Origin: a virus | Taxonomy: Duplodnaviria > Heunggongvirae > Uroviricota > Caudoviricetes | Reading direction: 5' to 3' (one strand) | Virus record (IMG/VR): IMGVR_UViG_3300017917_001353 | Span: 38,545-102,544 of that record | DNA length: 64,000 nt | In this document: piece after piece, positions 1,396 through 61,662 of the stretch | How positions within the stretch are numbered: position 1 is the first letter of the stretch | How the letters are laid out: each line of letters begins with the position of its first letter | Translations under genes and position numbers: made by a program | Notes under the pieces: model-generated | What the model saw: only the letters and a program-made list of their open reading frames with translations | Database searches by the model: none | What the model was told of the DNA's origin: nothing

Positions 1396-4300
1396 ATGGC
1401 ACAAATTAGATTAAGAAGAGATACATATCAAAATTGGTTCGACGCTAACCCGGTATTAGCCTACGGAGAGCCAGCATACGATGTTACCAATAATAAAATT
1501 AAAGTTGGTAACGGAATAGATAACTGGCAAGATCTGCCTTATCTAACCGATGTAGAGGCTAACGGGATAGCAGGTCCACAAGGAGATCCAGGTCCAGCAG
1601 GTCCACAAGGAGATCCAGGTCCTAAAGGAGACAAGGGAGACCCAGGCGATGTTGGCACACCCTCTATACCAAACACAATAAGAGGTTTCGTCAATCTCGT
1701 AGGCGCTCGTCCTAATAACAGCGACGAACTATGGTTTGAGTCAGTTGTAGTCCGCGGACAGCATGCCTATGTTCTAGGCGGTGATTATTTCACCGACAAT
1801 AACAACAACGAAGTCAAGGTCTACAAGTTTGATCTTGAAACAGGTGCTCAAATTTGGGTCAAACAGATTACAGCAGGCCGCGCCGCACAGTTCAACATCT
1901 CTGTAGGCGAAGGAATGATTGTTATAGATTCTATCGCTTTGGCAGGTGTTGATTATAAGGTAGGGGAAGAACTGGTGTTCTACGGGTGGCAGATCAATGG
2001 TAACGAACTACTTAACAAATTCTTTGTGGTAGTAGACAGCATAGACGAAACCGGTGGAATTCTTACAGCCAGCATCAAACCAGGATACAATGTTGATGGC
2101 TTGTCTGGAACATTTACTAACCTAACTGCTAATATCAACGGAGTGCCCGGAGACACAGTGGCCATTTCCTACGATGACTTTAATAACAAAGTCATTGTTG
2201 TACAAGAGTACAATCCAGAGATAGGCGACAATGTAGACTCATATTGGAACTGGAGCAATGTCTATATAATGGATCCAGGGACTGGTACGATCAATGAAAC
2301 TGTAACATTGACTGACGATGCGGATATCTATCCCAACAGCATCAGTACCTACGACAAAGAATTTGGTGTAGCCATCGTGGGACAAAAACTTGGTGAGTAC
2401 ACTGAGTTTGGAAACCTAACATTGTTAGCAGGTTACAACGGTTACTTTGACATTCTCAAATCTAATCTAGATCCAGAACACTATCCAGGTGCTGATCAGT
2501 ATAATCAATACTATGATTTCTGGATCACTGGTACAGGTATTACTTCGCAAGAAAATGTAGATGCTGTAAACCAATACAACTACATAACTGCCACTACTAG
2601 ACAGGGTTCGGGAGCAACATTCAGTGTAACAGTAGCCATACCTGGTGAAGTCTATGCGGCAGCGTCGCCATTTTCCTTTGGTACTAACTATCGTGTTGGT
2701 CACAAGATCAAACTATCGGGCGCAGACTTAGGTGGAACTACACCAGAAAACGATGTTATTATTACGGTAACCAGTGTAGACGGTGACGGCGGAATCACAG
2801 GTGTTAGTTTTGAAGGAACATCAAACGCCGGTGCTAGTCCTGGCGCAATCTACAATGGTATTTCAGGAACAAACTTCAATGTAGGTTCGGGCGTTGAGTT
2901 CGCTATCTATGTTGATCAAACAACTGGAGCATTTAGTTACGGTGGCTATTATACTGCTGGTTTAAACTATGTACCTGGCGATGTATTGACCATTCCGGGC
3001 ACAGCATTTGCCAACGGCGCATCCCCTGCCAATGATGCTACTATCGTAGTCAACACAGTAGATGGCTCCGGCGGCATCAGCAGCGTGGTCAACGGTGCTG
3101 TCACAGGCACAGCACCAACAGATGCCTTAAGAATCATAGTTAACGGGGTAGACTTCTCAGTTGAAGGTACCTGGGCTATGCGTCAGAATCTAGGTGGCGA
3201 GGCGTTCATCTGGACACCCACTTGGTCAAATGCTATTGGCGGGCCTAGCGGCGATAGATTCTACGATGTTTGCTGGAAGGCAGATGGTACAGCTCTATAT
3301 GCTGTGGGCAATGGTGTGTATGAAGTTCCATATACACAAGCATTGGTTGTCAAGTTTGACGCTACAACAGGTGCCGTGGTATGGAGCAAAGACATCAAGT
3401 TCGCAGAAGCCACAACAGAAAATAGAGAAGCCCGTGCTGTATGTCTAGTACCCGGTAGCACTGACATCATAGTAGCAGGTGCTTGGTATAACAATAACGG
3501 ATCTTTTAATGACGAGATTATCTTAACAAGAATTACAGACGCCGGAGTTGCTGTATGGCAAAAGACCTATCTTGTAAACAACAGTGGCAACAACATAGAT
3601 ATTAATTATGAAATATCCGTCAAACCAGTAGGCGACAATATTTTAGTGACTTTTGAACAAAGCACACCAATACACAGTCGTGGTTATGGATTTATCCTTG
3701 TTGACAGCACAGGCGCAGTAATTCGTCACAGGGTGTTGAGCGCAGACGGTAACTCAAACTACAACTACTACAATACTCCCACTGCCAACTTTGCGGATAT
3801 CTACACTGACGCAGCCGGGGATCACTTAGTTGTCGCCGGTTATACCTATGTGCCCACAGACAACTACTACAATGCTTTGTTGTTGAGAATGCCTGTAGAT
3901 GGACTAGCACCTATTGGAGTAAACCAACCATGGAGTATTGGTGAGCATATCTTAAATCGTTTTGATGTTGCCGTAACCGCAGTAACACCAGAATTTGATT
4001 CCTTTGTCCCAGAAGAACATGTTAACACTATCGTTAATGTCGTAGATGGCAGAAACTATAAGACCAGAGAACCAGATGGTCTACCACAGGTTTGGACACA
4101 TACTATCACTGACGATTCCGCAGGTTATTTAGAGTTTGGTGATGGTAGCAAGCAGAGTTTTGCCACAAACATCATTCCGCAGATTCCTGCTGCCAATGAT
4201 TACATTCTAACCACACAGGATTCGGGAAAGCACATATTCTTTGAACACGAAAGTGGTGTAGTTTATATTCCTCACAGAGATGTTAGATACTTCCCTGTAG

Positions 4301-6512: not shown

Positions 6513-6818
6513 ATGAGAGCATCAGATATTATTCGCGGAGTACTTGATCTTATAGATCAAATTGACTGTGTACAACAGCAGCAACCACCTGCCGTACAAG
6601 AACTACCCGTTGCAGGAACGTTTAAAGACATATTTTCTAAGTTAGAAGGCAGTACAACATCTGTCTATGATAATAGCCCGGAAGTACACATTCAGGGCGT
6701 ATCCGCAGTAACTACTGATGCCGGACTTGGCGGAACAAACGGGCCTAAGAATCCTGCAGATATTAGGTCAGATAGTGTAAGTATGTTCCCGGCATACCAA
6801 GCAAAGAACAAGGATTAA
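6513..6818 (+). CDS. hypothetical protein
   Basis: 101 aa ORF in the plus-strand operon. No recognisable motif. Confidence 0.3.
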   Translation: MRASDIIRGVLDLIDQIDCVQQQQPPAVQELPVAGTFKDIFSKLEGSTTSVYDNSPEVHIQGVSAVTTDAGLGGTNGPKNPADIRSDSVSMFPAYQAKNKD

Positions 6819-11135: not shown

Positions 11136-11646
11136 TTTGTTTTCTCCTGTGTGTGTAATATTATATATCTAAAGTTTAAAAAAAGCAATAAAAATCTGAC
11201 TTATTCGTAGACTTTTTTTGCCTCTTCAACTCTGCCTTGACGTGCTAGTGCAGATGCTGCACGAGCCTGTGCCATAGAAATGAAAAAGTCACCTACTGCT
11301 TTGAAAAAGGTCTTCATAGGAATCTCCCATGTGATTTTAATTCGAACTCTTTTGTGAAGTGCTCGACATCAGCGGCGTTTTGTGGGTATCTGTTAGAAAT
11401 GTAGCGATCTAACTCGCTTTGATAATGTTGACGTGGAAACATCTCTGCTAGTCGCTCTAAGATGTTGAACATTGTTTCTGATATAGTTTTCATATTTTTC
11501 CTCTGTATGTGTGTAGATACTCATGGTTTCTACTGAGTATTTATACATTCTATGTGCGACCGCAGCAAAAGTCAACGTTTTGTTTTGCCAAAAAGTATGC
11601 TATATTTGTTTACTGTAACCACTAAATACATCAAAGGAAAAACATC

Positions 11647-11946
11647 TTGAAAAGATCAACTCGTAGTCTTTTAGAAGAACTAAACTCTATATCTATCAAG
11701 AAGAACAGTGAAGCCGTCATTGAAAGTCGTGCTGCACATGTTATTGATAGTGCCATTAATCTTCTAACCGTAATAAGAGAAAATTACGACCCAGAAGATG
11801 CATACGAGCTAGAGCGTAGACTAATCAACAGTATCAAGGGCGGAGATCCTAGTAAATTTGTTCGCAGTATCCGTAGACTGCGTGATAATAAAGAAACTGC
11901 TAAAAATCTCAAAATAATCAAGGGCGACCTAGATTCTGACGATTAA
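11647..11946 (+). CDS. hypothetical protein
   Basis: 99 aa ORF. Confidence 0.3.
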   Translation: MKRSTRSLLEELNSISIKKNSEAVIESRAAHVIDSAINLLTVIRENYDPEDAYELERRLINSIKGGDPSKFVRSIRRLRDNKETAKNLKIIKGDLDSDD

Positions 11947-37572: not shown

Positions 37573-37627
37573 TGGACGACGATCTTAAAAGATTCGGAGT
37601 TGGATTTGTTACTGTTGTAATAATCAT

Positions 37628-37969
37628 GCTACTAGTCTTGTAAGTTATTGCTGTAAGAAGCAAAGAGAAAAGTGTTCTGGACGCGGGTTCGACTCCCGCC
37701 ATCTCCACCGAAGCACATTGCGGCACTAGGAGCGCATTTAAACTTAACCTAGTGTGGCTACTTAGGCAGTGTGTTTCGTTGGGGATGTACTGGTTTCGAC
37801 AGGGCAAAGAGTAACAGAGTGGACAGCACGGTAGGCGATGACCGTAAATCAAGCAAAACAAAATAGACGCAAACGACAACGTTTACGCATTAGCAGCCTA
37901 AACACTGCTTAGGGTAACTATACCTCGTAACAGAAAATAGTAATAGGCTCTTCGGAGCCTATTTTTTTG
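37628..37969 (+). ncRNA. ssrA: tmRNA (ssrA), circularly permuted two-piece type
   Basis: Acceptor-piece 3' end GGACGCGGGTTCGACTCCCGCCATCTCCACC (T-arm plus acceptor strand plus CC, 37679-37709) lies upstream of the coding-piece 5' end GGGGATGTACTGGTTTCGACAGG (37781). The GGGGATG/CATCTCC acceptor helix has the G3:U wobble (Ala identity). Tag ORF GCA AAC GAC AAC GTT TAC GCA TTA GCA GCC TAA (37869-37901) encodes ANDNVYALAA. Terminator hairpin aggctcttcggagcct+T7 at 37945-37969. No T-arm follows the tag, so it is not a one-piece gene. The 5' boundary of the acceptor piece is approximate. Confidence 0.6.
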
Positions 37970-38327: not shown

Positions 38328-38876
38328 ATGAAATTCAGTATCCCTATTAGTATTCCCGGCTGGGAAAATATCGCAGAAAAATATTCATCTTGGGTCAAGT
38401 TTGGAGAAGAAGGAATGCACTCCAAACTTGTTCCTACAGAAGATTGGGAATTTATACTTTCAATTGTAAACCCGGCCATAAAGAAAATTTCTAGGGTAGA
38501 TCACAAAATCAACGGCTGCATAAACTTCTTCGTCCCTCCAGGAAAAACTAGGGGAATACACGTTGATTGGAGTAGCCCTGATTGGCCCACTAAAGGCAAT
38601 TGGGCGCTGAACATTCCTATTGCAAATTACGAAAACAGTGCAATGGAATGGTATGCAGGAGAATACACTCGAGAAATGTATCATCGCCCTGGGGGATATA
38701 TTTCAGATAAACTGACTTGGAAAACTAAACCAGTTCTTATCGAATCCTGCGTCATCAATCAGCCAACTTTAGTATATGTAGATATACCTCACGATGTTAG
38801 AAACAACGGCAATTCAACAAGAGTACTGATGAGCCTGCGTTTAAGTCCTAATATCCTAACATACATTCCTAAATAA
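38328..38876 (+). CDS. cupin/AspH-like oxygenase-like protein
   Basis: TRGIHVDWSSPDW (HxD) ... VDIPHDVRNNGNSTRVLMSLRL. Confidence 0.4.
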   Translation: MKFSIPISIPGWENIAEKYSSWVKFGEEGMHSKLVPTEDWEFILSIVNPAIKKISRVDHKINGCINFFVPPGKTRGIHVDWSSPDWPTKGNWALNIPIANYENSAMEWYAGEYTREMYHRPGGYISDKLTWKTKPVLIESCVINQPTLVYVDIPHDVRNNGNSTRVLMSLRLSPNILTYIPK

Positions 38877-52323: not shown

Positions 52324-52383
52324 TCTGCGTAGTTAAATAATTGTGTGCAGATGCACATTCACTTAACACACAAGGAGATTACA

Positions 52384-53367
52384 GTGAAAAAACTATTCGT
52401 GACACTACTGGCGGCAATAGCCGTTACAGCACAAGCACAAACCATTACCGGAGCGGGAGCAACATTCCCGGCTCCGGTTTATAGTAAGTGGGCCTCTGAT
52501 TATAACAAAGAAACAAAAGTACAAATTAATTATGGAAGTCTAGGATCTTCCGGCGGCATTAAACAGATGGAAGGCAAGACTGTAAACTTTGCCGCCACTG
52601 ACGATCCAATGAGCCAAGAGGACCTAACCAAGCGTGGATGGCATCAATTTCCTGCTGTCATCGGTGGAGTTGTTCTAGCAGTAAATTTTAAAAATTTTCA
52701 ACCAGGTGAAATTGTACTAGACGGCAAAACTGTAGCAGATATATTTGAAGGCAAGATTACAAACTGGAATGATCCTGCCATTAAGAAACTAAATCCTAAA
52801 CTTACATTTCCTGACCTAACAATTACTGCTATTGTTCGCAGTGACGGATCAGGTACTACCGCAGTCTTTACTAACTATCTAAGCCAAGTTAGTGAAAGTT
52901 TTAAAAAGAATGTAGGCGAAGGTAAAGCCATTGCTTGGAAGAATAAAAATGCTGCCGCCGGTAAAGGCAATGCAGGTGTTGCTGCCAATGTACAAAATAT
53001 TGCAGGTAGTATAGGCTACGTTGAATATGCGTTTGCCAAGCAAGGTAAGATGACCCATGTTGCCATGTTGAATAAAGGTAAGGTTGTGCAACCAGACGAT
53101 TCGACATTTAAACAGGCCGCCGATAGTGCCAATTGGTCTGTGCCCGGCATGGCTGTAAACTTAAACAATAGAGACGGATGGCCGATTACTGCCGCTACCT
53201 TTGTATTAGTTTACAAAGAAGGGCACGATAAGACAAAAGATGTGTTGAAATTCTTTGACTGGGCATTTACTAAAGGAGATCAGGCCGCATTAGATCTCGA
53301 TTATGTACCTTTACCGGATAAAGTAAAGGTACAGGTTAGGGCCGACTGGGCTAAGAATGTAAAATAA
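52384..53367 (+). CDS. pstS: phosphate ABC transporter periplasmic phosphate-binding protein PstS
   Basis: GTG start after RBS AAGGAG. Signal peptide MKKLFVTLLAAIAVTAQA. TGAGATFP...Y.KW, SDGSGTT and other PstS blocks. Confidence 0.85.
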   Translation: MKKLFVTLLAAIAVTAQAQTITGAGATFPAPVYSKWASDYNKETKVQINYGSLGSSGGIKQMEGKTVNFAATDDPMSQEDLTKRGWHQFPAVIGGVVLAVNFKNFQPGEIVLDGKTVADIFEGKITNWNDPAIKKLNPKLTFPDLTITAIVRSDGSGTTAVFTNYLSQVSESFKKNVGEGKAIAWKNKNAAAGKGNAGVAANVQNIAGSIGYVEYAFAKQGKMTHVAMLNKGKVVQPDDSTFKQAADSANWSVPGMAVNLNNRDGWPITAATFVLVYKEGHDKTKDVLKFFDWAFTKGDQAALDLDYVPLPDKVKVQVRADWAKNVK

Positions 53368-53371
53368 AAAT

Positions 53372-53397
53372 AAAGGGCTTTACTAGCCCTTTATTCT
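53372..53397. terminator. hairpin terminator
   Basis: aagggctttactagccctt hairpin between convergent genes. Confidence 0.5.
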
Positions 53398-53565
53398 TTA
53401 CCCCAATTAACTTTCAACCATAGTCGTTCATGTATGTAATGCACAATAGTCATCCATACATTAATTAAAATTGCTCCGCTTAGTCCTGTGAAATATGCAG
53501 TAACTAAAGTTGCTGTGATTCTCCAACTTGCGGCTCTTACTAATGTTCTCTTGTGTGTTTCCATA
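53395..53565 (-). CDS. small membrane protein
   Basis: 57 aa METHKRTLVRAASWRITATLVTAYFTGLSGAILINVWMTIVHYIHERLWLKVNWGKE. Not in the supplied track because it is under 60 aa. Confidence 0.3.
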
Positions 53566-53579
53566 TTTTACTCCAAAAT

Positions 53580-53610
53580 AAAAGCCCCTTTCGGGGCTTT
53601 GTTAATTTTT
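53580..53610. terminator. bidirectional hairpin terminator
   Basis: aaagcccctttcggggcttt followed by T-rich sequence. Confidence 0.55.
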
Positions 53611-54273
53611 CTTTCTAATTTCTGTTCGGTAATACTGTTTAGCAGTAAGAAGAACAGCACCTATTAATGGCAATACATTTTCTATAAAATCGTGTAATGG
53701 ATCAATGTGATTGTCAATGAATGGTTCGTGTACTATCATCTTTCCTGCTACTAGATATAGAACAAATGCACCTAAGTAAATTGTTCTGGGATATTTATCA
53801 AGTATGCGAGAAACTAGTGTGCTACCGAATAAGATGATTGGTACACTAACTAGAAGTCCAATAATGATTAGAATCCAGTTACCGTTTGCGGCACCAGCAA
53901 TAGCCAATGCATTATCAAGGCCCATAACTGCATCTGCCATTACGATTGTGCCCATTGCGCCCCAGAACGTTGTAGCAGCCTTAACATCATGTTCTTTATT
54001 GCCCTGTGTTAGTTTCCAAGCAATATAGATCAATGCAAGTCCGCCTACTAGACGCAGTCCGGGAATCATTAGCAGATAAGTTAGTGCAGCCACACAGGCA
54101 AACCGTACACCTACAGCACCGAAGGTACCCCAGAGTATAGCACGTCGACGCAGATGATCCGGTAGTTGTTTACTGGCCATAGCAATAACCAGTGCGTTTT
54201 CTCCACCTAGCACAACATCAATTAAGATAATGGCCAGCAGAGCCCATAAGAATTGTAAGGATAAAATTTCCAT
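53602..54273 (-). CDS. terC: TerC/Alx-family integral membrane protein
   Basis: Start moved to the internal Met (MEILSLQFLWALLAIILIDVVLGGENALVIAMA) typical of the TerC family. The track ORF extension to 54336 is riboswitch leader. Multiple TM helices with paired DN motifs. Confidence 0.7.
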   Translation of the reverse strand: MEILSLQFLWALLAIILIDVVLGGENALVIAMASKQLPDHLRRRAILWGTFGAVGVRFACVAALTYLLMIPGLRLVGGLALIYIAWKLTQGNKEHDVKAATTFWGAMGTIVMADAVMGLDNALAIAGAANGNWILIIIGLLVSVPIILFGSTLVSRILDKYPRTIYLGAFVLYLVAGKMIVHEPFIDNHIDPLHDFIENVLPLIGAVLLTAKQYYRTEIRKKN

Positions 54274-54417
54274 AATACTTCCGTTTACTTTATGGTCTTG
54301 TCCAGAACCCGTTTCCCGCACTGACCGGGTTTTCACCGTATTGACGATCAGTGTGCCTAGTGTTGCACTAGGGGACTACTCCCCACTGTGATATTTAGTC
54401 TCTTGACAATTTACCAT
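54274..54417 (-). promoter_or_regulatory. yybP-ykoY (manganese) riboswitch-like leader of terC
   Basis: Minus-strand leader contains ...CACAGUGGGGAGUAGUCCCC... (hallmark GGGGAGUAG), a CUAGUG/CACUAG hairpin, and GUCAAUACGGUGAAAACCCGGUCAGUGCGGG. It precedes a TerC gene, the classic yybP-ykoY context. A -10 TATAAT at 54424-29 on the minus strand. Confidence 0.5.
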
Positions 54418-54431
54418 TTTGGTATTATACT
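54403..54431 (+). promoter_or_regulatory. sigma70-like promoter TTGACA-17-TATACT (divergent from terC)
   Basis: TTGACA 54403-08, TATACT 54426-31. RBS AAAGGAG before the 54462 ATG. Confidence 0.5.
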
Positions 54432-54461
54432 GTAAGTACAGTAAATAGAAAGGAGCCCAAA

Positions 54462-54674
54462 ATGCCCAGAATTGAAAGACCCAATGTAGTTGCTTTCAAA
54501 GTTGTTCTAACTGAATATGAACGTGGCTGGGGCCAAAAGCACTGGGATACTTGGTACTTCGATAACGAAGAAGAAGCCCGGCAAGCCGCTATTGCCTACA
54601 ACAGAGAGCACAACAACAAAGATTATGTACCCGATTGGTATGTACGTGCTGATTATGTAGGTTCGGTAAGATAA
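54462..54674 (+). CDS. hypothetical protein
   Basis: 70 aa with promoter, RBS and terminator (acacaccc-ttcg-gggtgtgt at 54682-54701). Confidence 0.4.
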   Translation: MPRIERPNVVAFKVVLTEYERGWGQKHWDTWYFDNEEEARQAAIAYNREHNNKDYVPDWYVRADYVGSVR

Positions 54675-54762: not shown

Positions 54763-54966
54763 ATGTCAAAAGAAATTCGATCAGTTGAACAAATTGTTCA
54801 ATCTCTAATAAATCTACGCAATGAAATGGTTGCTTGCGGACGATCCGAAATAGCATTTAAAATCAACAGTTGCCTATTCAGCGAATATCCACATGCGCCT
54901 CATTCGGCAGCATGGCGCGAAAAATATGCCGCAGAAAATTGGATCAAAGGAGCGCAAAATGCCTAA
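54763..54966 (+). CDS. hypothetical protein
   Basis: 67 aa. RBS AAAGGAG. Confidence 0.3.
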   Translation: MSKEIRSVEQIVQSLINLRNEMVACGRSEIAFKINSCLFSEYPHAPHSAAWREKYAAENWIKGAQNA

Positions 54967-55978
54967 GCCTTATGGAACACTGGTCCTCGTCGGACGCTTT
55001 CAACCTCTGCACAATGCACACCTCGAGATCATCAAGCGATGCACTGCACTCACCGATCAATTGGTAATCATTGTAGGCAGTGCTAACCAACCTCGTACCT
55101 ACAAGAATCCATTTACGTTCGAAGAGCGCAAGAAGATGATCCTTGATGCTAGTCGCAACCTCAATCTGCGTGTCTATGTCGAACCTAACATTGACACCAT
55201 CTACAACGATCAAGCATGGGCAGTCCGTGTACAGGGGATTCACAGCAAGTATCGAATCCTCGGAACTAAGGACGGTATTATTGGGCACAAGAAAGACGAA
55301 TCTAGTTTCTACCTCGACATGTTCCCTCAATGGGAGTTTGTTGATGTAGAAGAAATTGAGCCCCTTGGTGCTACAGATATTCGAGAACTCTACTTCAAAC
55401 GTGATGCGAACATGCGCTTCATCCAGGGAGTTGTTCCTGAAACTGCATTTAACTTCTTAGAAGAATTTAAAAAGACTGACGCCTACGAGCAGGTTATTCG
55501 TGAGCGCGAGTTTATTGAGGCCTACAAAAAGCAATACGCAAGTCTGCCTTATCCGCCGATTTTCGTTACTGCTGACGCTGTAGTAATTCAAAGCGGCCAT
55601 GTGCTCATGATCAAGCGCCGCAGTGAGCCAGGAAAAGGTCTTTGGGCACTGCCCGGAGGTTTCGTTAACGCCAACACAGATAAGAGTGTAGAAGATGCCG
55701 CAATTAGAGAACTTAGAGAAGAAACAGGAATTAAAGTCCCTGCTCCTGTACTGCGTGGTAGTATTGTTCGCAGTAGGGTGTTTGATGCTGTTAACAGGAG
55801 TGCTAGGGGGCGTACCATTACCCACGCCTACTATATACAACTGCCCGACGGTGATCTGCCTAAAGTAAAAGGACAGGACGATGCCGAGAAGGCTCGCTGG
55901 GTTCCTATCGCCGAAGTTCGTAGTGAAGATTGTTTCGAAGATCACTACGAGATCATTCAACATTTCTTAGGAGCATAA
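54959..55978 (+). CDS. nadM: bifunctional NMN adenylyltransferase / Nudix hydrolase (NadM-Nudix)
   Basis: GTLVLVGRFQPLHNAH (NMNAT (H/T)xGH-type motif). C-terminal Nudix box GGFVNANTDKSVEDAAIRELREETGI. Confidence 0.8.
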   Translation: MPKPYGTLVLVGRFQPLHNAHLEIIKRCTALTDQLVIIVGSANQPRTYKNPFTFEERKKMILDASRNLNLRVYVEPNIDTIYNDQAWAVRVQGIHSKYRILGTKDGIIGHKKDESSFYLDMFPQWEFVDVEEIEPLGATDIRELYFKRDANMRFIQGVVPETAFNFLEEFKKTDAYEQVIREREFIEAYKKQYASLPYPPIFVTADAVVIQSGHVLMIKRRSEPGKGLWALPGGFVNANTDKSVEDAAIRELREETGIKVPAPVLRGSIVRSRVFDAVNRSARGRTITHAYYIQLPDGDLPKVKGQDDAEKARWVPIAEVRSEDCFEDHYEIIQHFLGA

Positions 55979-55979
55979 A

Positions 55980-56255
55980 ATGACTCATTATACAAACACA
56001 AATAATCCTATCGACTTTCCAAAAATGGAATATATTTGGGAAGCCGAACTAGATGGCAAATATCATTGTTCAGTGGTACGTATTAACAAGCGTGGAGGAA
56101 ATCTGCGTCTAGTTGATACTACTACTGGTCGTGAACTGCTTAATCAAGATGTGGGCCTGCTCTACGGAGCACAGTTTGGTCCGGACGTAGAAGACGTTGC
56201 CAAATGGCAAAGTATCTGCGCCGCTGTTGTAGACAGGGACCAAAAAAATGCTTAA
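55980..56255 (+). CDS. hypothetical protein
   Basis: 91 aa. Confidence 0.3.
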   Translation: MTHYTNTNNPIDFPKMEYIWEAELDGKYHCSVVRINKRGGNLRLVDTTTGRELLNQDVGLLYGAQFGPDVEDVAKWQSICAAVVDRDQKNA

Positions 56256-56733
56256 ACATACAAAAGGCGATCTGTTGAAAATGGCTGAACAAGGCCAGTT
56301 CAATATTATCATGCACGGTTGCAACTGCCATAACACAATGGGCAGTGGTATTGCTCGGCAGATTCGTGAGCAGTATCCTCAGGCCTATGAAGCAGACAGT
56401 CTTACCAAGCCTGGCGACAAAACTAAGCTCGGTACAATTACTGTATCTTTGGCTAACAATCAAGTCGGTGGAAAATTTGTAATTGTTAATGCTTATACAC
56501 AGTACGATTTTAATCGAGGCGGTGTTACAAATGATGTATTCGAATACGATGCATTCCAAAACATCCTGAACGGTTTTGCTAGAGATGCAGGACCTAGTAT
56601 GCAAATTGGTCTTCCATATATTGGTATGGGCCTTGCAGGCGGCGACAAAGAAAGAATTTTGGCAATGATTGAAGACTTTGCCAATAAGGTTTCGGCAAAA
56701 GGTGGCAGTGTCACTTTAGTCGAATTTGGTTGA
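56248..56733 (+). CDS. macro-domain (ADP-ribose binding/processing) protein
   Basis: FNIIMHGCNCHNTMGSGIARQIREQYP resembles the macro-domain N(A)AN...GGGV..AI motif. 161 aa. Confidence 0.5.
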   Translation: MLKHTKGDLLKMAEQGQFNIIMHGCNCHNTMGSGIARQIREQYPQAYEADSLTKPGDKTKLGTITVSLANNQVGGKFVIVNAYTQYDFNRGGVTNDVFEYDAFQNILNGFARDAGPSMQIGLPYIGMGLAGGDKERILAMIEDFANKVSAKGGSVTLVEFG

Positions 56734-56812: not shown

Positions 56813-58207
56813 ATGAAACTCGCAAAAAACATTCTATTGAACACTGACTCGTACAAAGTGAGTATGTTCAAACAATATCCTGCAGGAACTACAGGTGTAT
56901 ATTCGTATATCGAAAGTCGGGGTGGACGCTACGATAGAACTGTATTCTTCGGACTACAGGCTTTTATCAAAGAATACCTATGCGTACCTATCACGCAGTC
57001 GGACATTGACATTGCTGATGAGATCCTTACCGCACACGGTGAGCCTTTCAACCGAGCAGGATGGCAGTACATTCTTGATAAGCACAATGGATACCTCCCT
57101 GTGGTTATCCGAGCAGTTCCAGAAGGCACCGTGGTTCCTGTCAAAAATGTCCTTGCCACAATCGAAAACACTGATCCAGAATGCTTCTGGCTAACCACTT
57201 GGCTAGAAACTGCTCTGCTTCGTGCTATTTGGTATCCTACTACTGTAGCAACTCAAAGTTGGACTATCCGCCAACTGATCCTAGACTATTTGGAGAAAAC
57301 TGGTGATCCAACTCTTATTGATTTTAAACTTCACGACTTTGGTGCTCGTGGTGTTAGCAGTCTTGAATCTGCTAGTATCGGCGGCGCGGCGCACTTGGTT
57401 AACTTTATGGGCACTGATACTATCTCTGGTATTCTGTTTGCCCGTGAGTATTACGGCGCTGGTGTTGCTGGTTTCTCAATCCCTGCCGCAGAACACAGCA
57501 CCATCACAAGTTGGGGACGAGATAGAGAAGTTGATGCATACCGCAATATGCTCACCAATTTCGCTAAGCCAGGAAGCATTGTGGCTATTGTGTCAGATTC
57601 CTATGACATCTACAACGCCGCCGGAAGACTCTGGGGAGAAGAACTTAGGCAACAGGTTATTGACTCGGGCGCCACTGTTGTAATTCGTCCCGACAGTGGT
57701 GATCCTGTAGAAGTTAACCGCAACCTAATCCAACTGCTGGACAGCAAGTTTGGGAGTACTGTAAATGCCAAAGGCTTCAAAGTCCTCAACAACGTCCGCC
57801 TCATCCAAGGCGACGGAGTCAACGAACTTACTATCCGTTCTATTCTTGGTGCTTTTATGGCCCTTGGCTACAGTGCCGATAATATCGCTTTTGGTATGGG
57901 CGGCGCCCTGCTACAGCAAGTGGATCGCGACACTCAAAAGTTTGCTATGAAGTGTTCGTCTGCACAGGTCAACGGTGAATGGATTGATGTGCAAAAAGAT
58001 CCTGCTACTGACCCTGGCAAAAAGAGTAAGGCAGGTCGTGTTGTTCTTTGGGAATCCGGCGGCGAATATCGTTCGGGTGTTGAACAACCAAAAGGGTGGA
58101 CTGACCGTGGCACGATGTGGAACGAAGTTCTCGAAACTGTTTATTGTGACGGAGAACTCCTTAACGAAATCACATTCGAGCAAGTTCGGGCTAACGCAAA
58201 GGCCTAA
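56813..58207 (+). CDS. nadV: nicotinamide phosphoribosyltransferase (Nampt/NadV)
   Basis: 464 aa. LLNTDSYKVSMFKQYP N-terminus and conserved Nampt blocks (FGARGVSS, GTDT, DSYD). Confidence 0.85.
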   Translation: MKLAKNILLNTDSYKVSMFKQYPAGTTGVYSYIESRGGRYDRTVFFGLQAFIKEYLCVPITQSDIDIADEILTAHGEPFNRAGWQYILDKHNGYLPVVIRAVPEGTVVPVKNVLATIENTDPECFWLTTWLETALLRAIWYPTTVATQSWTIRQLILDYLEKTGDPTLIDFKLHDFGARGVSSLESASIGGAAHLVNFMGTDTISGILFAREYYGAGVAGFSIPAAEHSTITSWGRDREVDAYRNMLTNFAKPGSIVAIVSDSYDIYNAAGRLWGEELRQQVIDSGATVVIRPDSGDPVEVNRNLIQLLDSKFGSTVNAKGFKVLNNVRLIQGDGVNELTIRSILGAFMALGYSADNIAFGMGGALLQQVDRDTQKFAMKCSSAQVNGEWIDVQKDPATDPGKKSKAGRVVLWESGGEYRSGVEQPKGWTDRGTMWNEVLETVYCDGELLNEITFEQVRANAKA

Positions 58208-59478: not shown

Positions 59479-61662
59479 ATGATTCTTAACAATGCTCCTG
59501 CTAACGAAGCCATTGTTTCCAATGTTGGCGAAATCGGCGAATTCCGTATTCGCAACAGTGCCAAAGCGTTTAACATTTTGTCCAGCGGTCTGTACGCTAA
59601 CAAGATCCGCGCAATTATTCGCGAACTGAGTTGCAATGCTGTGGATAGCCACACTGCCGCAGGTCGTGTTGATACTCCGTTTGATGTTCACCTGCCCAAT
59701 ACACTGGAGCCGCATTTCAGCATTCGCGACTATGGTACTGGCTTGAGTCACGCACAGGTTACCAACATCTATACTACTTACTTCGAATCTACCAAAACGG
59801 ACTCTAATTCGTTCATTGGTGCGCTCGGACTGGGCAGTAAGAGTCCGTTCAGTTATACCGACAACTTCACCGTAACCGCTATCCAAAACGGTCGCAAAGG
59901 TATCTACACTGCTTTCATTAACGAGCACGGTGTGCCTAGCATCGCGCTGATGATGGAAGAAGCCACTGACGAGCCTGCAGGTGTTGAAGTTAAATTCGGT
60001 GTTAACGACCGCTATGACTTCAACAAGTTCCGCGAAGAAGCTCGTAATGTCTATAAGCACTTTACTCTGAAGCCGGTGGTTTCTGGCAACAGTGACTTTA
60101 CTTTTGAATTAGTAGACTACGAAAGCAAGGACATCATTCCCGGTGTTCATGCGCTCAAGAGCGGTAGCCACCGTAGCGTGGCTGTTATGGGTAATATTGC
60201 TTACCCAATCGAACTGCCTGCCGGTAGCGACATCGGCGGCCTGAACAACCTGCTGACCTGCGGTCTAGAACTGCACTTTGATATTGGCGAATTGGATTTC
60301 CAGGCTAGCCGTGAAGGTCTGAGCTACATCCCTAGCACGGTCGAAGCCATTAAGCGTAAGTTGGAAGCACTGAACTCTGCATTGTCAGTGGTTATTGCTC
60401 GCGAAGCAAACGCCATCGGCAACCTGTGGGATCGTGCTGTGTTTCTTGCCAAGAAGAAAGAAGTCCGCCTGTGGACCACTGCTGTAGCAGAATATGCTAA
60501 GACTGCTAACCTGCCTACTTACGATGCTACCCACAAATACGGCCCTCGCTGTACTACGTTCAGTCTTAAAGTTGAAGACCTTGCCAAGAACTGGAACATT
60601 CAAATTAAACTGTTGGAACAGAGTCGTGGTAGTAAGAGTATCAAGAACGGTAAGAGTTCTACTGAGTATGCCGATGATCATGCTAAGGACGCCAACGGAC
60701 ATTACATTACTTGGCAGGCATGGAACATCACTGTAGATGCAGACAGCCATTTTATTGTCAACGATACTAAGATCGGTGGCGCAGGTCGTGTTGGCTATCA
60801 CTACCGTGAGGTTGGCTGTACTGCCTACCACCGTAAACTGTGGATTCTGGAAAAGGCCGACAAGTCCAAGGATATGGATCTCAAGGCATTCTTTACTGCC
60901 CTGCACTTTCCTCCTTCGGATCGTTGTTTTGTTGTCAGCGACCTGAAGCAGAAGACTCGCGAAAGTGTTGCTAAGAACGTGACTATTATGAAGTTAGAGC
61001 GCCGCGGCGGCAGTGGATATCGCCGTAGTGACGATGACATGGTGTGGCGTGATGCTGGCGATACTAGCACCTTCGATGCTACTCAGACCTACTACTATGT
61101 TCCGTTGAGTGGCTTCTTTATGGAGAGCAAGAAAGGCTATGGGTCTGGCAAAGAACTCTACGAAGATGTTAAGAGCCTGCCTGGTCTGTTCAATGGTGAG
61201 ATCTATGGTGTCCGTAAAAAGGATATCGAGGATATCAAACTGCGTAAGAATTGGGTAAACTTTGAAGACCATATTACTGCTGTGCTGAATGCCAAAGACA
61301 CTAGCAAGCTCTTGATGGGCATTGTTAAGAGTCGGTTGGACAATGCAGATATTCTGAATATCGAAAGTCATGCTCTGCTGGAACTTATTGAGAACGCTAA
61401 CAGCCCTTACAAGAAGTTGGTAGAAGTTTTCCGTAAGGTCGAAAAGCCTAGCCATAACACTTATCGAGTTGAAAATCTGTTCCGCAAGTTTGCCCCTAAC
61501 GCAAATTTGGATCCGTCTACTTTGGTTACTAAGTATCAAAACGAACTGCGTAGTGTTAACAACCGTTACCCGCTACTGACTCGTTTGAACAGTTATCGTG
61601 TTAACGCACATGATGTGGCCGAGTACATCAACTTGATCGATGCTAAGAAAGGCGTAGAATGA
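59479..61662 (+). CDS. rIIA: rIIA-like protein with N-terminal GHKL (Hsp90/MutL-type Bergerat) ATPase domain
   Basis: LYANKIRAIIRELSCNAVDS (N-box, as in Hsp90 YSNKEIFLRELISNASDA), IRDYGTGLS (G1), IGALGLGSKSPFSY (G2). 727 aa, the size of T4 rIIA (725 aa). Confidence 0.5.
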   Translation: MILNNAPANEAIVSNVGEIGEFRIRNSAKAFNILSSGLYANKIRAIIRELSCNAVDSHTAAGRVDTPFDVHLPNTLEPHFSIRDYGTGLSHAQVTNIYTTYFESTKTDSNSFIGALGLGSKSPFSYTDNFTVTAIQNGRKGIYTAFINEHGVPSIALMMEEATDEPAGVEVKFGVNDRYDFNKFREEARNVYKHFTLKPVVSGNSDFTFELVDYESKDIIPGVHALKSGSHRSVAVMGNIAYPIELPAGSDIGGLNNLLTCGLELHFDIGELDFQASREGLSYIPSTVEAIKRKLEALNSALSVVIAREANAIGNLWDRAVFLAKKKEVRLWTTAVAEYAKTANLPTYDATHKYGPRCTTFSLKVEDLAKNWNIQIKLLEQSRGSKSIKNGKSSTEYADDHAKDANGHYITWQAWNITVDADSHFIVNDTKIGGAGRVGYHYREVGCTAYHRKLWILEKADKSKDMDLKAFFTALHFPPSDRCFVVSDLKQKTRESVAKNVTIMKLERRGGSGYRRSDDDMVWRDAGDTSTFDATQTYYYVPLSGFFMESKKGYGSGKELYEDVKSLPGLFNGEIYGVRKKDIEDIKLRKNWVNFEDHITAVLNAKDTSKLLMGIVKSRLDNADILNIESHALLELIENANSPYKKLVEVFRKVEKPSHNTYRVENLFRKFAPNANLDPSTLVTKYQNELRSVNNRYPLLTRLNSYRVNAHDVAEYINLIDAKKGVE

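Follow-up and report, generated by a model that had tools for sequence, protein, structure and literature searches.

A likely yybP-ykoY (Mn2+) riboswitch upstream of the terC gene of a T4-like aquatic phage

Riboswitches are rare in phages (PMC9004378), and the phage riboswitches described to date mostly belong to the glutamine class. The subject here is a leader RNA encoded on the minus strand of a 64,000-nt stretch of viral DNA (IMG/VR record IMGVR_UViG_3300017917_001353, positions 38,545 to 102,544; the whole stretch is called the window below), where it precedes a gene of the TerC family. Judged by its sequence and by that of its relatives, the leader is likely to belong to the yybP-ykoY (Mn2+) class; its carrier is a T4-like aquatic phage, in which it would lie between a promoter of the phage and the TerC/YjbE gene that the phage itself encodes.

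The class fold is a four-way junction in which P1 is stacked on P2 and P3 on P4, and the docking of L1 onto L3 creates a Mg2+ and a Mn2+ site (PMC11087558, PMC6754395). The Mn2+ is held by five phosphates and by the N7 of an adenosine that is invariable in L3 (L. lactis A41, X. oryzae A48) and whose mutation to U abolishes sensing (PMC11087558, PMC6754395). In the sarcin-ricin-like L1, A10 makes an A-minor contact with a G-C pair of P3.1 (PMC6754395). P1.1, which is nucleated by two G:C pairs, acts as the switch helix (PMC11087558, PMC6754395). In the case of E. coli mntP, the ribosome-binding site is inaccessible without Mn2+, and translation is switched on when Mn2+ is present (PMC11647493).

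Class membership of the leader

Two covariance models were built, R1 from phage leaders and R2 from the leaders of E. coli mntP and alx and seven Xanthomonadales leaders only. Searching both strands of the 64-kb window with R2 returned a single match, on the minus strand at 54387-54291 (57.2 bits, E = 1.3e-10), and R1 gave the window 71.8 bits. Conversely, R1 was run over 188 kb and recovered the leaders of E. coli mntP (40.7 bits, E = 3e-8) and alx (20 bits, E = 0.013) as well as 7/7 Xanthomonadales leaders, and nothing else. A yybP-ykoY-type leader before terC was what the original prediction, made from the window alone, had proposed; it is supported by these reciprocal searches and by the covariation in 27 + 18 phage leaders described below.

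The gene context agrees with the class, as the aptamer ends about 20 nt before a gene of the TIGR03717 R_switched_YjbE family. The list of open reading frames (ORFs) gives this gene as a 244-aa minus-strand ORF running from GTG 54336 to 53602. Its product matches Pfam PF03741 (TerC family; E = 1e-43; 149 bits, cutoff 27.8; the domain starts at residue 35 of the 244-aa ORF) and NCBIfam TIGR03717 (202.9 bits, cutoff 134.8). Both scores are above the curated cutoffs, so that the predicted TerC/YjbE identity is solid and the gene had rightly been called a phage terC. The features of the locus are as follows.

54392-54398, minus strand: CTAAATA box, a putative T4-late-like promoter element, with the predicted transcript start near G54386, 6 nt downstream
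54291-54387, minus strand: yybP-ykoY-class aptamer, the whole covariance-model match (R2 57.2 bits; R1 71.8 bits)
54376-54384, minus strand: block GGGGAGUAG, in which G54384 and G54383 form the 5' strand of P1.1, GGAGUA the 5' strand of L1 and G54376 the first base of P1.2
54384/54383 with 54294/54295, minus strand: P1.1, GG:CC plus U54385-A54293 and G54386-U54292; GG and CC are invariant
54382-54377 and 54299-54296, minus strand: L1, GGAGUA and AAGA, 54380 being the A-minor adenosine; all 18 leaders sampled by protein only have GGGGAGUA, as do E. coli and Xanthomonadales
54376-54373 and 54303-54300, minus strand: P1.2, GUCC/GGAC, covarying pairs
54372-54356, minus strand: P2 hairpin, CCUAGUG-CAA-CACUAGG, the second RNAalifold helix, with double compensatory changes in 4/4 scored pairs
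54319-54353, minus strand: P3 as a whole (P3.1, L3 and P3.2)
54353-54345 and 54327-54319, minus strand: P3.1, CACUGAUCG/CGGUCAGUG, with double changes in 5/9 pairs; the U-G, C-G and G-C pairs beside L3 are invariant
54344-54338, minus strand: L3, asymmetric loop UCAAUAC, with the discriminator adenosine at 54339, kept in 17/18 of the leaders sampled by protein only
54337-54328, minus strand: P3.2 hairpin, GGU-GAAA-ACC, with double changes in 3/3 pairs
54303-54318, minus strand: P4, a short hairpin of 4-5 bp, CGGGA-AACGGG-UUCUG, predicted in the window and nine relatives, with limited covariation
54294-54303, minus strand: GGACAAGACC, comprising the 3' strands of P1.2 (GGAC), L1 (AAGA) and P1.1 (CC); AGACCA is invariant
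54270-54295, minus strand: proposed expression-platform hairpin with arms CCAUAA (54295-54290) and UUAUGG (54275-54270), from the unconstrained minimum free energy (MFE) fold and from arm covariation
53602-54273, minus strand: terC (YjbE-family TerC), 223 aa, starting at an ATG internal to the listed ORF, according to Pfam, TIGR03717 and homologue starts
53581-53600, minus strand: intrinsic-terminator-like hairpin and T run directly 3' of the terC stop, from a terminator scan (stem of 8 bp, 5 of them GC, followed by TATTTT)

Relatives were collected by protein-guided retrieval, which gave 31 bacterial loci and 39 viral ones from IMG/VR, with contigs as long as 364 kb among them. A common layout, GGGGAGTAG ... 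TCGTCA(N)YAC ... AGACC, in which the stems differ yet remain complementary, was seen in five distinct viral leaders. A DNA pattern consisting of only the three unpaired blocks was then used, and 29 viral stretches were found, nearly all of them 15-30 nt upstream of a TerC gene, which was of the short YjbE or the long Alx type. One stretch from the pattern scan, L084, which is GC-rich and has no TerC, was excluded as an apparent chance match. Alignment A1 contains 27 distinct leaders, and from it RNAalifold, run unguided, predicted P1.1, P1.2, P2 and P3.1-L3-P3.2 with double compensatory changes in 14/22 pairs. By pair counting, 96.8% of the cells in A1 are paired, compared with 80.9% in shuffles, and double changes occupy 113 cells, compared with 32.9 (neither value was reached in 500 shuffles); pairing dropped to 26-48% when the partners were slid by 1-3 columns.

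Because invariance of the three motifs in A1 is imposed by the search pattern itself, a second sampling guided by protein only was made from metagenomes. The phage-leader model finds the aptamer in 21 of these 80 terC loci (18 distinct leaders, 16 of them new), and it always ends some 15-20 nt upstream of the start codon (21/21 metagenomic copies). In the 18 leaders, GGGGAGUA and AGACCA are invariant, pairing reaches 98.7% (83.0% when shuffled) and 73 cells carry double changes (21.1 when shuffled). The ninth base of the block is G or A in step with its P1.2 partner C or U (9 vs 9), a compensatory change that was unseen in A1 because the search pattern had hidden it. A leader conserved with compensatory changes, which had been suggested as something to look for in relatives, was thus found in both sets. 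No match to the region was obtained by blastn against deposited phages, and tblastn against them gave only distant TerCs (at most 39% identity), none with the aptamer; these belong to Otagovirus-type TelA-vWA-TerC-TerD clusters, a Rhizobium phage and others.

The features by which the class is recognized are present: L1 GGAGUA, the L3 adenosine, the G-C receptor pairs, the four-way junction, two G:C pairs in P1.1 and recognition by covariance models. All four junction helices can be drawn in the window, and P1.2, P2, P3.1 and P3.2 are backed by covariation. P4, which completes the junction, changes among relatives as GGGA/UUCU, GGGG/UCCU and GGAA/UUCC. The predicted A-minor receptor pairs next to L3, G54345-C54327 and C54346-G54326, are invariant in all leaders. 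The discriminator A is present in 27/27 leaders of A1, a count partly imposed by the search pattern, and its correspondence to A41/A48 is by loop position. Within GGGG the register of P1.1 is ambiguous, since RNAalifold pairs the last two Gs and literature-based threading the first two.

On the minus strand, GGGGAGTAG at 54384-54376 is the sole copy in the window. Taken alone this 9-mer is not significant, as it occurs once or more in 23/100 shuffles; the element as a whole far exceeds chance expectation. The block had been placed originally in a GGGG...CCCC stem, and only the block stood: the stem (54384-54380 with 54375-54371) is a local hairpin of the unconstrained fold, seen in the window and in L077 only, and was rejected as not conserved in relatives. 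What is conserved instead is pairing of GG with the CC of AGACC (54295-54294) and of GUCC (54376-54373) with GGAC (54303-54300). A CUAGUG/CACUAG hairpin and GUCA-containing 3' elements had also been noticed, and these turned out to be P2 and, for the latter, L3 together with the 3' strand of P3.1. Two outer helices of a 156-nt fold, AUGGU/ACCAU and UUGUC/GACAA, were not used because they draw on sequence upstream of the conserved promoter-like box and are unseen in the closest relative.

Several observations weigh against the assignment. RF00080, the Rfam model of the class, was not found when the whole window was scanned at the gathering score. In a permissive scan of 54200-54520 (321 nt) it was the top match on the correct strand (54396-54260, E = 0.048), with 14.4 bits, far under the gathering threshold of 45 bits. 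The columns of the alignment behind R2 are not wholly independent, as the phage model served to align the bacterial sequences. P1.1 would be only 2-4 bp long if the transcript starts at the site proposed below. The leader's MFE is not unusually stable (z = -0.59); MFE z-scores were unremarkable and were not used as evidence in either direction.

The Rfam result can be judged from controls. The validated E. coli mntP leader (L100 962-1071) scores 41.6 bits with RF00080, also below 45; for the validated alx leader (L101 1377-1499) the search reported no match; and a textbook-looking Xanthomonadales leader (L011) scores 28 bits. In the copy of the model used (Rfam 15), the consensus leaves the GGGGAGUAG block unpaired, expects a 7-bp P4 and ends after it, with neither a P1 helix nor the AGACC 3' strand. 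Such a model gives no credit for the AGACC end and puts a short P4 at a disadvantage. Failure at the threshold is therefore uninformative here, since mntP also falls below it and alx is missed. The lack of a significant RF00080 hit had been named beforehand as grounds for giving the prediction up; the window nearly fits that description, and the absence of a gathering-score match was set aside as a refutation after the mntP, alx and L011 controls, by which the yardstick itself proved invalid. It also follows that annotation pipelines relying on this copy of the model would leave such elements unmarked and over-extend the terC ORF into the leader.

Promoter and proposed switch

The late promoter of T4-like phages, TATAAAT, is used by T4-like aquatic phages (PMC9004378). 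In the T4-type late promoter, for which the late sigma factor is gp55, a TATAAATA-like -10 element stands about 6 nt before the transcript start. The TAAATA box ends 5-7 nt upstream of GGGG in 25/26 phage leaders. Within the window, [CTA]TAAATA occurs 23 times on the coding strand versus nine times on the other, and 17 of the 23 copies lie within 150 nt upstream of an ORF start. The box is also kept directly before the Shine-Dalgarno (SD) sequence in three relatives without an aptamer (L111, L133 and L119); in L111, whose TerC is 91% identical, the arrangement reads TATAAATA-tctcac-GGAAGGA-ttttt-ATGG. Since aptamer-less relatives keep the box before the SD, it would act as a promoter, and the transcript probably starts near G54386, with an RNA that would begin at P1.1. 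The presence of the box both with and without the aptamer suggests a modular riboswitch that lies between promoter and ribosome-binding site. The leader, for which some 143 nt had been estimated before, then probably measures about 113 nt from ~G54386, assuming that the conserved CTAAATA box is the promoter. A scan for sigma-70 promoters showed none on the minus strand for terC; a TATAAT at 54432-54427 lacks a -35 element.

The hairpin proposed as the expression platform connects the aptamer with the start codon. Its 5' arm, CCAUAA, overlaps the 3' strand of P1.1, its 3' arm, UUAUGG, holds the start codon, and the SD sequence GGAAG (54282-54278) lies in the loop. Across leaders the arms change jointly (CCAUUUUA/UAAAAUGG, CCAUUAU/AUGAUGG, CCAUAAUAU/AUAUUAUGG). 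Contiguous arm pairing averages 5.4, compared with 4.0 for mismatched partners (reached in 0/5000 permutations); by pair counting, 73% of the cells are paired versus 65% in shuffles (1/500), with 24 versus 14.8 double changes (0/500). In thermodynamic ensembles, the probability that the start-codon region is unpaired rises from a mean of 0.10 in the free state (window 0.22) to 0.59 with the aptamer enforced (0.78 in the window; Wilcoxon p = 2e-7). Sequestration of the SD sequence was rejected as a mechanism, as its accessibility is the same in both states. In the window, the aptamer state lies only about 3.5 kcal/mol above the free ensemble; in our judgement, which draws on neither a calculation nor a source, tertiary docking upon ligand binding could plausibly cover this difference.

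These observations can be put together in the following model. Transcription from the CTAAATA box near G54386 would yield an RNA beginning with the switch helix P1.1. At low Mn2+, the weak P1.1 (GG:CC, U-A and G-U) would not be held, CCAUAA would pair with UUAUGG, and the buried start codon would prevent translation of TerC. At high Mn2+, the docking of L1 and L3 would stabilise P1.1, GG would take CC, the rest of the hairpin would melt and the exposed AUG would allow TerC to be made. We infer a translational Mn2+-ON switch with the logic published for E. coli mntP, under which TerC is probably made only at high Mn2+ in the infected cell. One possible benefit is that a potentially toxic membrane protein would be limited to high-Mn2+ conditions (compare PMC11647493).

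The start-codon hairpin has its own difficulties. Support for it is moderate, as 65% of the cells already pair in shuffles of these AU-rich arms, and the CCAU/AUGG core is also conserved for other reasons (P1.1, and a Met-Glu/Asp N-terminus). In addition, relatives of the CCAAU type (L078, L083, L086, L088, L090 and L094) have no such hairpin. In this subgroup, ACUCUC (ACUCC in L090) stands between SD and AUG and is complementary to the L1 strand GGGAGU, which would amount to a different anti-aptamer design.

With these difficulties in view, the alternative that survives best is that the aptamer is a true member of the class but that control is mainly transcriptional, by Rho-dependent termination in the leader or early ORF or by pausing, with the start-codon hairpin secondary or incidental. 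There is precedent for this: Rho terminates in the E. coli mntP riboswitch region, where activation by Mn2+ restores coupling (PMC11647493), and pausing and NusA act on P1.1 (PMC11087558). The moderate statistics of the AUG hairpin and its absence from the CCAAU subgroup point the same way. However, the ~20 nt between aptamer and AUG contain no intrinsic terminator, and in 20/26 leaders a CC-containing strand is complementary to the start codon region and covaries with it. Mainly transcriptional control is thus considered rather unlikely. Rho-dependent effects like those at mntP may nevertheless occur, but Rho action would be more an addition to translational control than an alternative, because it lies downstream of the translational decision.

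Less probable is that the yybP-ykoY fold responds to another or a combined signal in the infected cell, such as Mn2+ combined with alkaline pH, the case of E. coli alx, or a divalent metal other than Mn2+. Structures with bound Cd2+ are cited in PMC6754395, and both the unusually short P1.1 of the phage aptamers and the absence of P4 in most relatives could change the tuning. Against this, the GGAGUA of L1, the discriminator A of L3 and the G-C receptor pairs, which make up the known Mn2+ site, have all been retained, and the regulated gene belongs to the TerC family, which is linked to Mn2+ (PMC12096827), RefSeq naming Alx an 'Mn(2+) exporter'. Sensing of Mn2+ is therefore kept as the preferred reading of the ligand.

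Variation among phage copies, gene start and neighbourhood

The aptamer is present at 7/39 IMG/VR terC loci and 21/80 metagenomic terC loci, and at 0/5 of the terC loci of cultured phages. P4 occurs in the window and a minority of relatives (10/27 in A1; 6/18 in the sampling by protein only). It is absent from 17/27 and 12/18 leaders, respectively, where a conserved 8-nt linker, rACrAAGm, is found instead (e.g., L082 2607-2685 and L108 497-583); such leaders would be three-way-junction versions of a fold that has been described as four-way. All nine aligned bacterial leaders have extra bases at the position of P4, and a P4-like hairpin was seen in the two that were read through (mntP and L011). 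The type of aptamer does not track the protein tree, since L108, whose TerC is 92% identical to that of the window, lacks P4. Moreover, terC cassettes that are up to 91% identical (L111 ~560-600; L133, L119, L115 and L118) have the TAAATA box followed by SD and ATG, without an aptamer. The aptamer module may be swapped in and out between the promoter and ribosome-binding site of near-identical terC cassettes.

Some copies deviate individually. In L142 (213-309), C replaces the L3 discriminator adenosine (TCAATCC), which could mean a decaying copy, a sequencing error or an altered specificity. In L097 (11535-11773), the AUG held by the 9-bp sequestering hairpin belongs to an upstream ORF of 42 aa (11645-11773), which overlaps the start of terC (11734), and control may act there through translational coupling. 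In L079 (7946-7712, minus strand), on a 356-kb viral contig, the aptamer is followed by a 42-aa lipoprotein-like ORF (MLRLISLFLLLFTTISC...) and then by a 198-aa ORF, with no TerC next to it. Four loci binned as metagenome-assembled genomes of Hyphomicrobiales or Gammaproteobacteria (L001-L004) encode TerCs 73-75% identical to the phage protein and lack the aptamer; they could be prophages or phage DNA placed in the wrong bin.

This patchy distribution bears on the suggestion that the leader is a non-sensing relic that hitch-hiked along with terC on horizontal transfer, or that it is structured in a generic way and affects mRNA stability only. Very close terC relatives do without the aptamer (L111 consists of promoter, SD and ATG), only 18-26% of the related phage terC loci carry it, and the discriminator change in L142 would suit a relic. 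Yet pairing is kept at 97-99%, and the loop nucleotides are invariant, across leaders whose stems have diverged extensively, which argues for purifying selection on the ligand-binding architecture rather than decay and leaves a relic very improbable.

A more far-reaching and tentative reading starts from a sensing aptamer: aquatic T4-like phages may have domesticated a Mn2+ riboswitch into an ultra-compact module that is fired by a late promoter, whose RNA starts with the switch helix and gates the start codon, and which in most lineages has lost P4, leaving a natural three-way junction where an obligate four-way one has been described, and is swapped between cassettes. If this were true, the phage would read the metal or pH state of the infected cell late in infection and dose a membrane metal transporter accordingly.

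The original prediction took the internal Met at 54273 as the true TerC start and the N-terminal extension as leader, and this is borne out by homologue starts and in-frame stops. More than 100 homologues with 75-91% identity are nearly all 222-224 aa long and align from this Met, an in-frame stop stands 3-7 codons before the shared ATG in 13/25 related leaders, and an alternative start is present in almost none. The 21-codon extension (GTG 54336) is accordingly an accidental open frame, given these starts and stops and the fact that the GTG falls within the P3.2 hairpin. That the 244-aa ORF is instead the real gene, in a coding region that only resembles a riboswitch, is hardly credible: the frame in the window is open for 35 codons upstream of the ATG and has GTG codons at -16 and -21, but the homologues and their stops, the late beginning of the Pfam domain, the lack of an SD sequence before a GTG that lies inside a hairpin, and substitutions that follow RNA-helix covariation and not codon conservation all speak against it.

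Upstream of the 244-aa ORF, a gap of 125 nt separates the gene from a divergent plus-strand ORF (54462-54674), which has its own strong sigma-70-like promoter (54403-54431). The plus strand holds nearly all other genes of the window, so that terC and the 57-aa ORF behind it form a small minus-strand islet. Since the terminator directly follows terC, promoter, sensor, gene and terminator together would form a self-contained cassette on the strand opposite to its neighbours. The 57-aa hydrophobic ORF (METHKRTLVRAASWRITATLV...; 53391-53564, minus strand) adjoins the terC terminator downstream and has no match in Pfam or NCBIfam; its homologues lie directly upstream of terC in L053 and L054, and therefore both genes travel together in several phages.

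The window is of phage origin, as it encodes virion and baseplate proteins, RIIA/RIIB, NrdA and NAMPT, and one of its structural proteins is about 50% identical to the counterparts of T4-like cyanomyophages. A two-piece (permuted) tmRNA gene is found at 37598-37965 on the plus strand (beta_tmRNA 150.9 bits; tmRNA_permuted 144.5 bits), and the related phage contig L068 has one at 6563-6672, a few kb from its terC cassette. Two-piece tmRNAs are known from aquatic T4-like myophages (PMC9004378). The terC islet lies within a block of auxiliary genes on the plus strand (ORFs 52345-53367, 54893-55978, 56248-56733, 56813-58207 and 59479-61662), in which a PstS-like phosphate-binding protein, an NMN-adenylyltransferase/Nudix fusion, an ORF that is macro-domain-like by eye, NAMPT and RIIA/RIIB were noted. 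In many relatives without the aptamer (L042, L049, L058, L060, L063, L066, L069, L070 and others), terC directly follows an ORF ending in ...GELCACNR.VGGETL*, an end that sits just upstream of position 3001 in these loci. By eye this end resembles the C-terminus of a peroxiredoxin (AhpC-like), a hint that phage TerC may be connected with oxidative stress.

Comparison with known riboswitches

In an incomplete literature search, no yybP-ykoY/manganese riboswitch or other metal-ion riboswitch was found reported in a phage, and an earlier description is possible. What is new is a known riboswitch class in an unusual carrier, a phage; the compact platform and the P4-less relatives are variations on it. 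If a phage auxiliary gene is preceded by a metal-ion riboswitch, the phage itself would sense the Mn2+ status of the infected cell, without relying on host regulators. The terC cassettes with and without the aptamer, and the aptamers with and without P4, are natural comparison sets for the roles of P4 and of a long P1.1 in Mn2+ sensing.

As to the carrier, the closest parallels are the glutamine riboswitches of the phage Melnitz, pelagimyophages and cyanophages, which are likewise aquatic T4-like myophages with two-piece tmRNAs (PMC9004378). Class, ligand and target all differ from those proposed for the window.

As to target, E. coli alx is similar in that a TerC-family gene is regulated, and other phages place the aptamer before an Alx-type TerC (L082; TIGR03718 R_switched_Alx, 389 bits). 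However, alx also responds to alkaline pH (PMC13594968), and the window protein is of the short YjbE type, not Alx.

The L. lactis and X. oryzae yybP-ykoY riboswitches, known from crystal structures, share with the phage leader the four-way junction, L1-L3 docking and a discriminator adenosine in a 7-nt L3 (PMC11087558, PMC6754395), these being predicted from sequence alone in the phage. They also share a P1.1 that is nucleated by two G:C pairs and whose 3' strand takes part in the helix of the OFF state (PMC11087558, PMC6754395), and the phage model R1 also picks up leaders that precede TerC homologues in Xanthomonadales. The difference lies in the output: in L. lactis and X. oryzae, transcriptional antitermination sets the 3' strand of P1.1 against an intrinsic terminator, whereas in the phage this strand is proposed to compete with a start-codon hairpin. 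Furthermore, the phage has a much shorter P1.1 and a minimal P4 of 4-5 bp.

The E. coli mntP riboswitch agrees with the phage leader in its L1 block, UGGGGAGUAGCC, in the order of P2, P3, L3 and P4, and in its 3' end, which reads GGCGAGACCAUA in mntP and GGACAAGACCAUA in the phage. The mntP aptamer is located in a 229-nt 5' untranslated region, far from the ribosome-binding site, and an exporter of the MntP family is regulated. In contrast, the phage aptamer ends about 20 nt before the AUG of a YjbE-type TerC, its transcript apparently begins at P1.1, and the helix formed in the OFF state is proposed to sequester the start codon, not the SD sequence.

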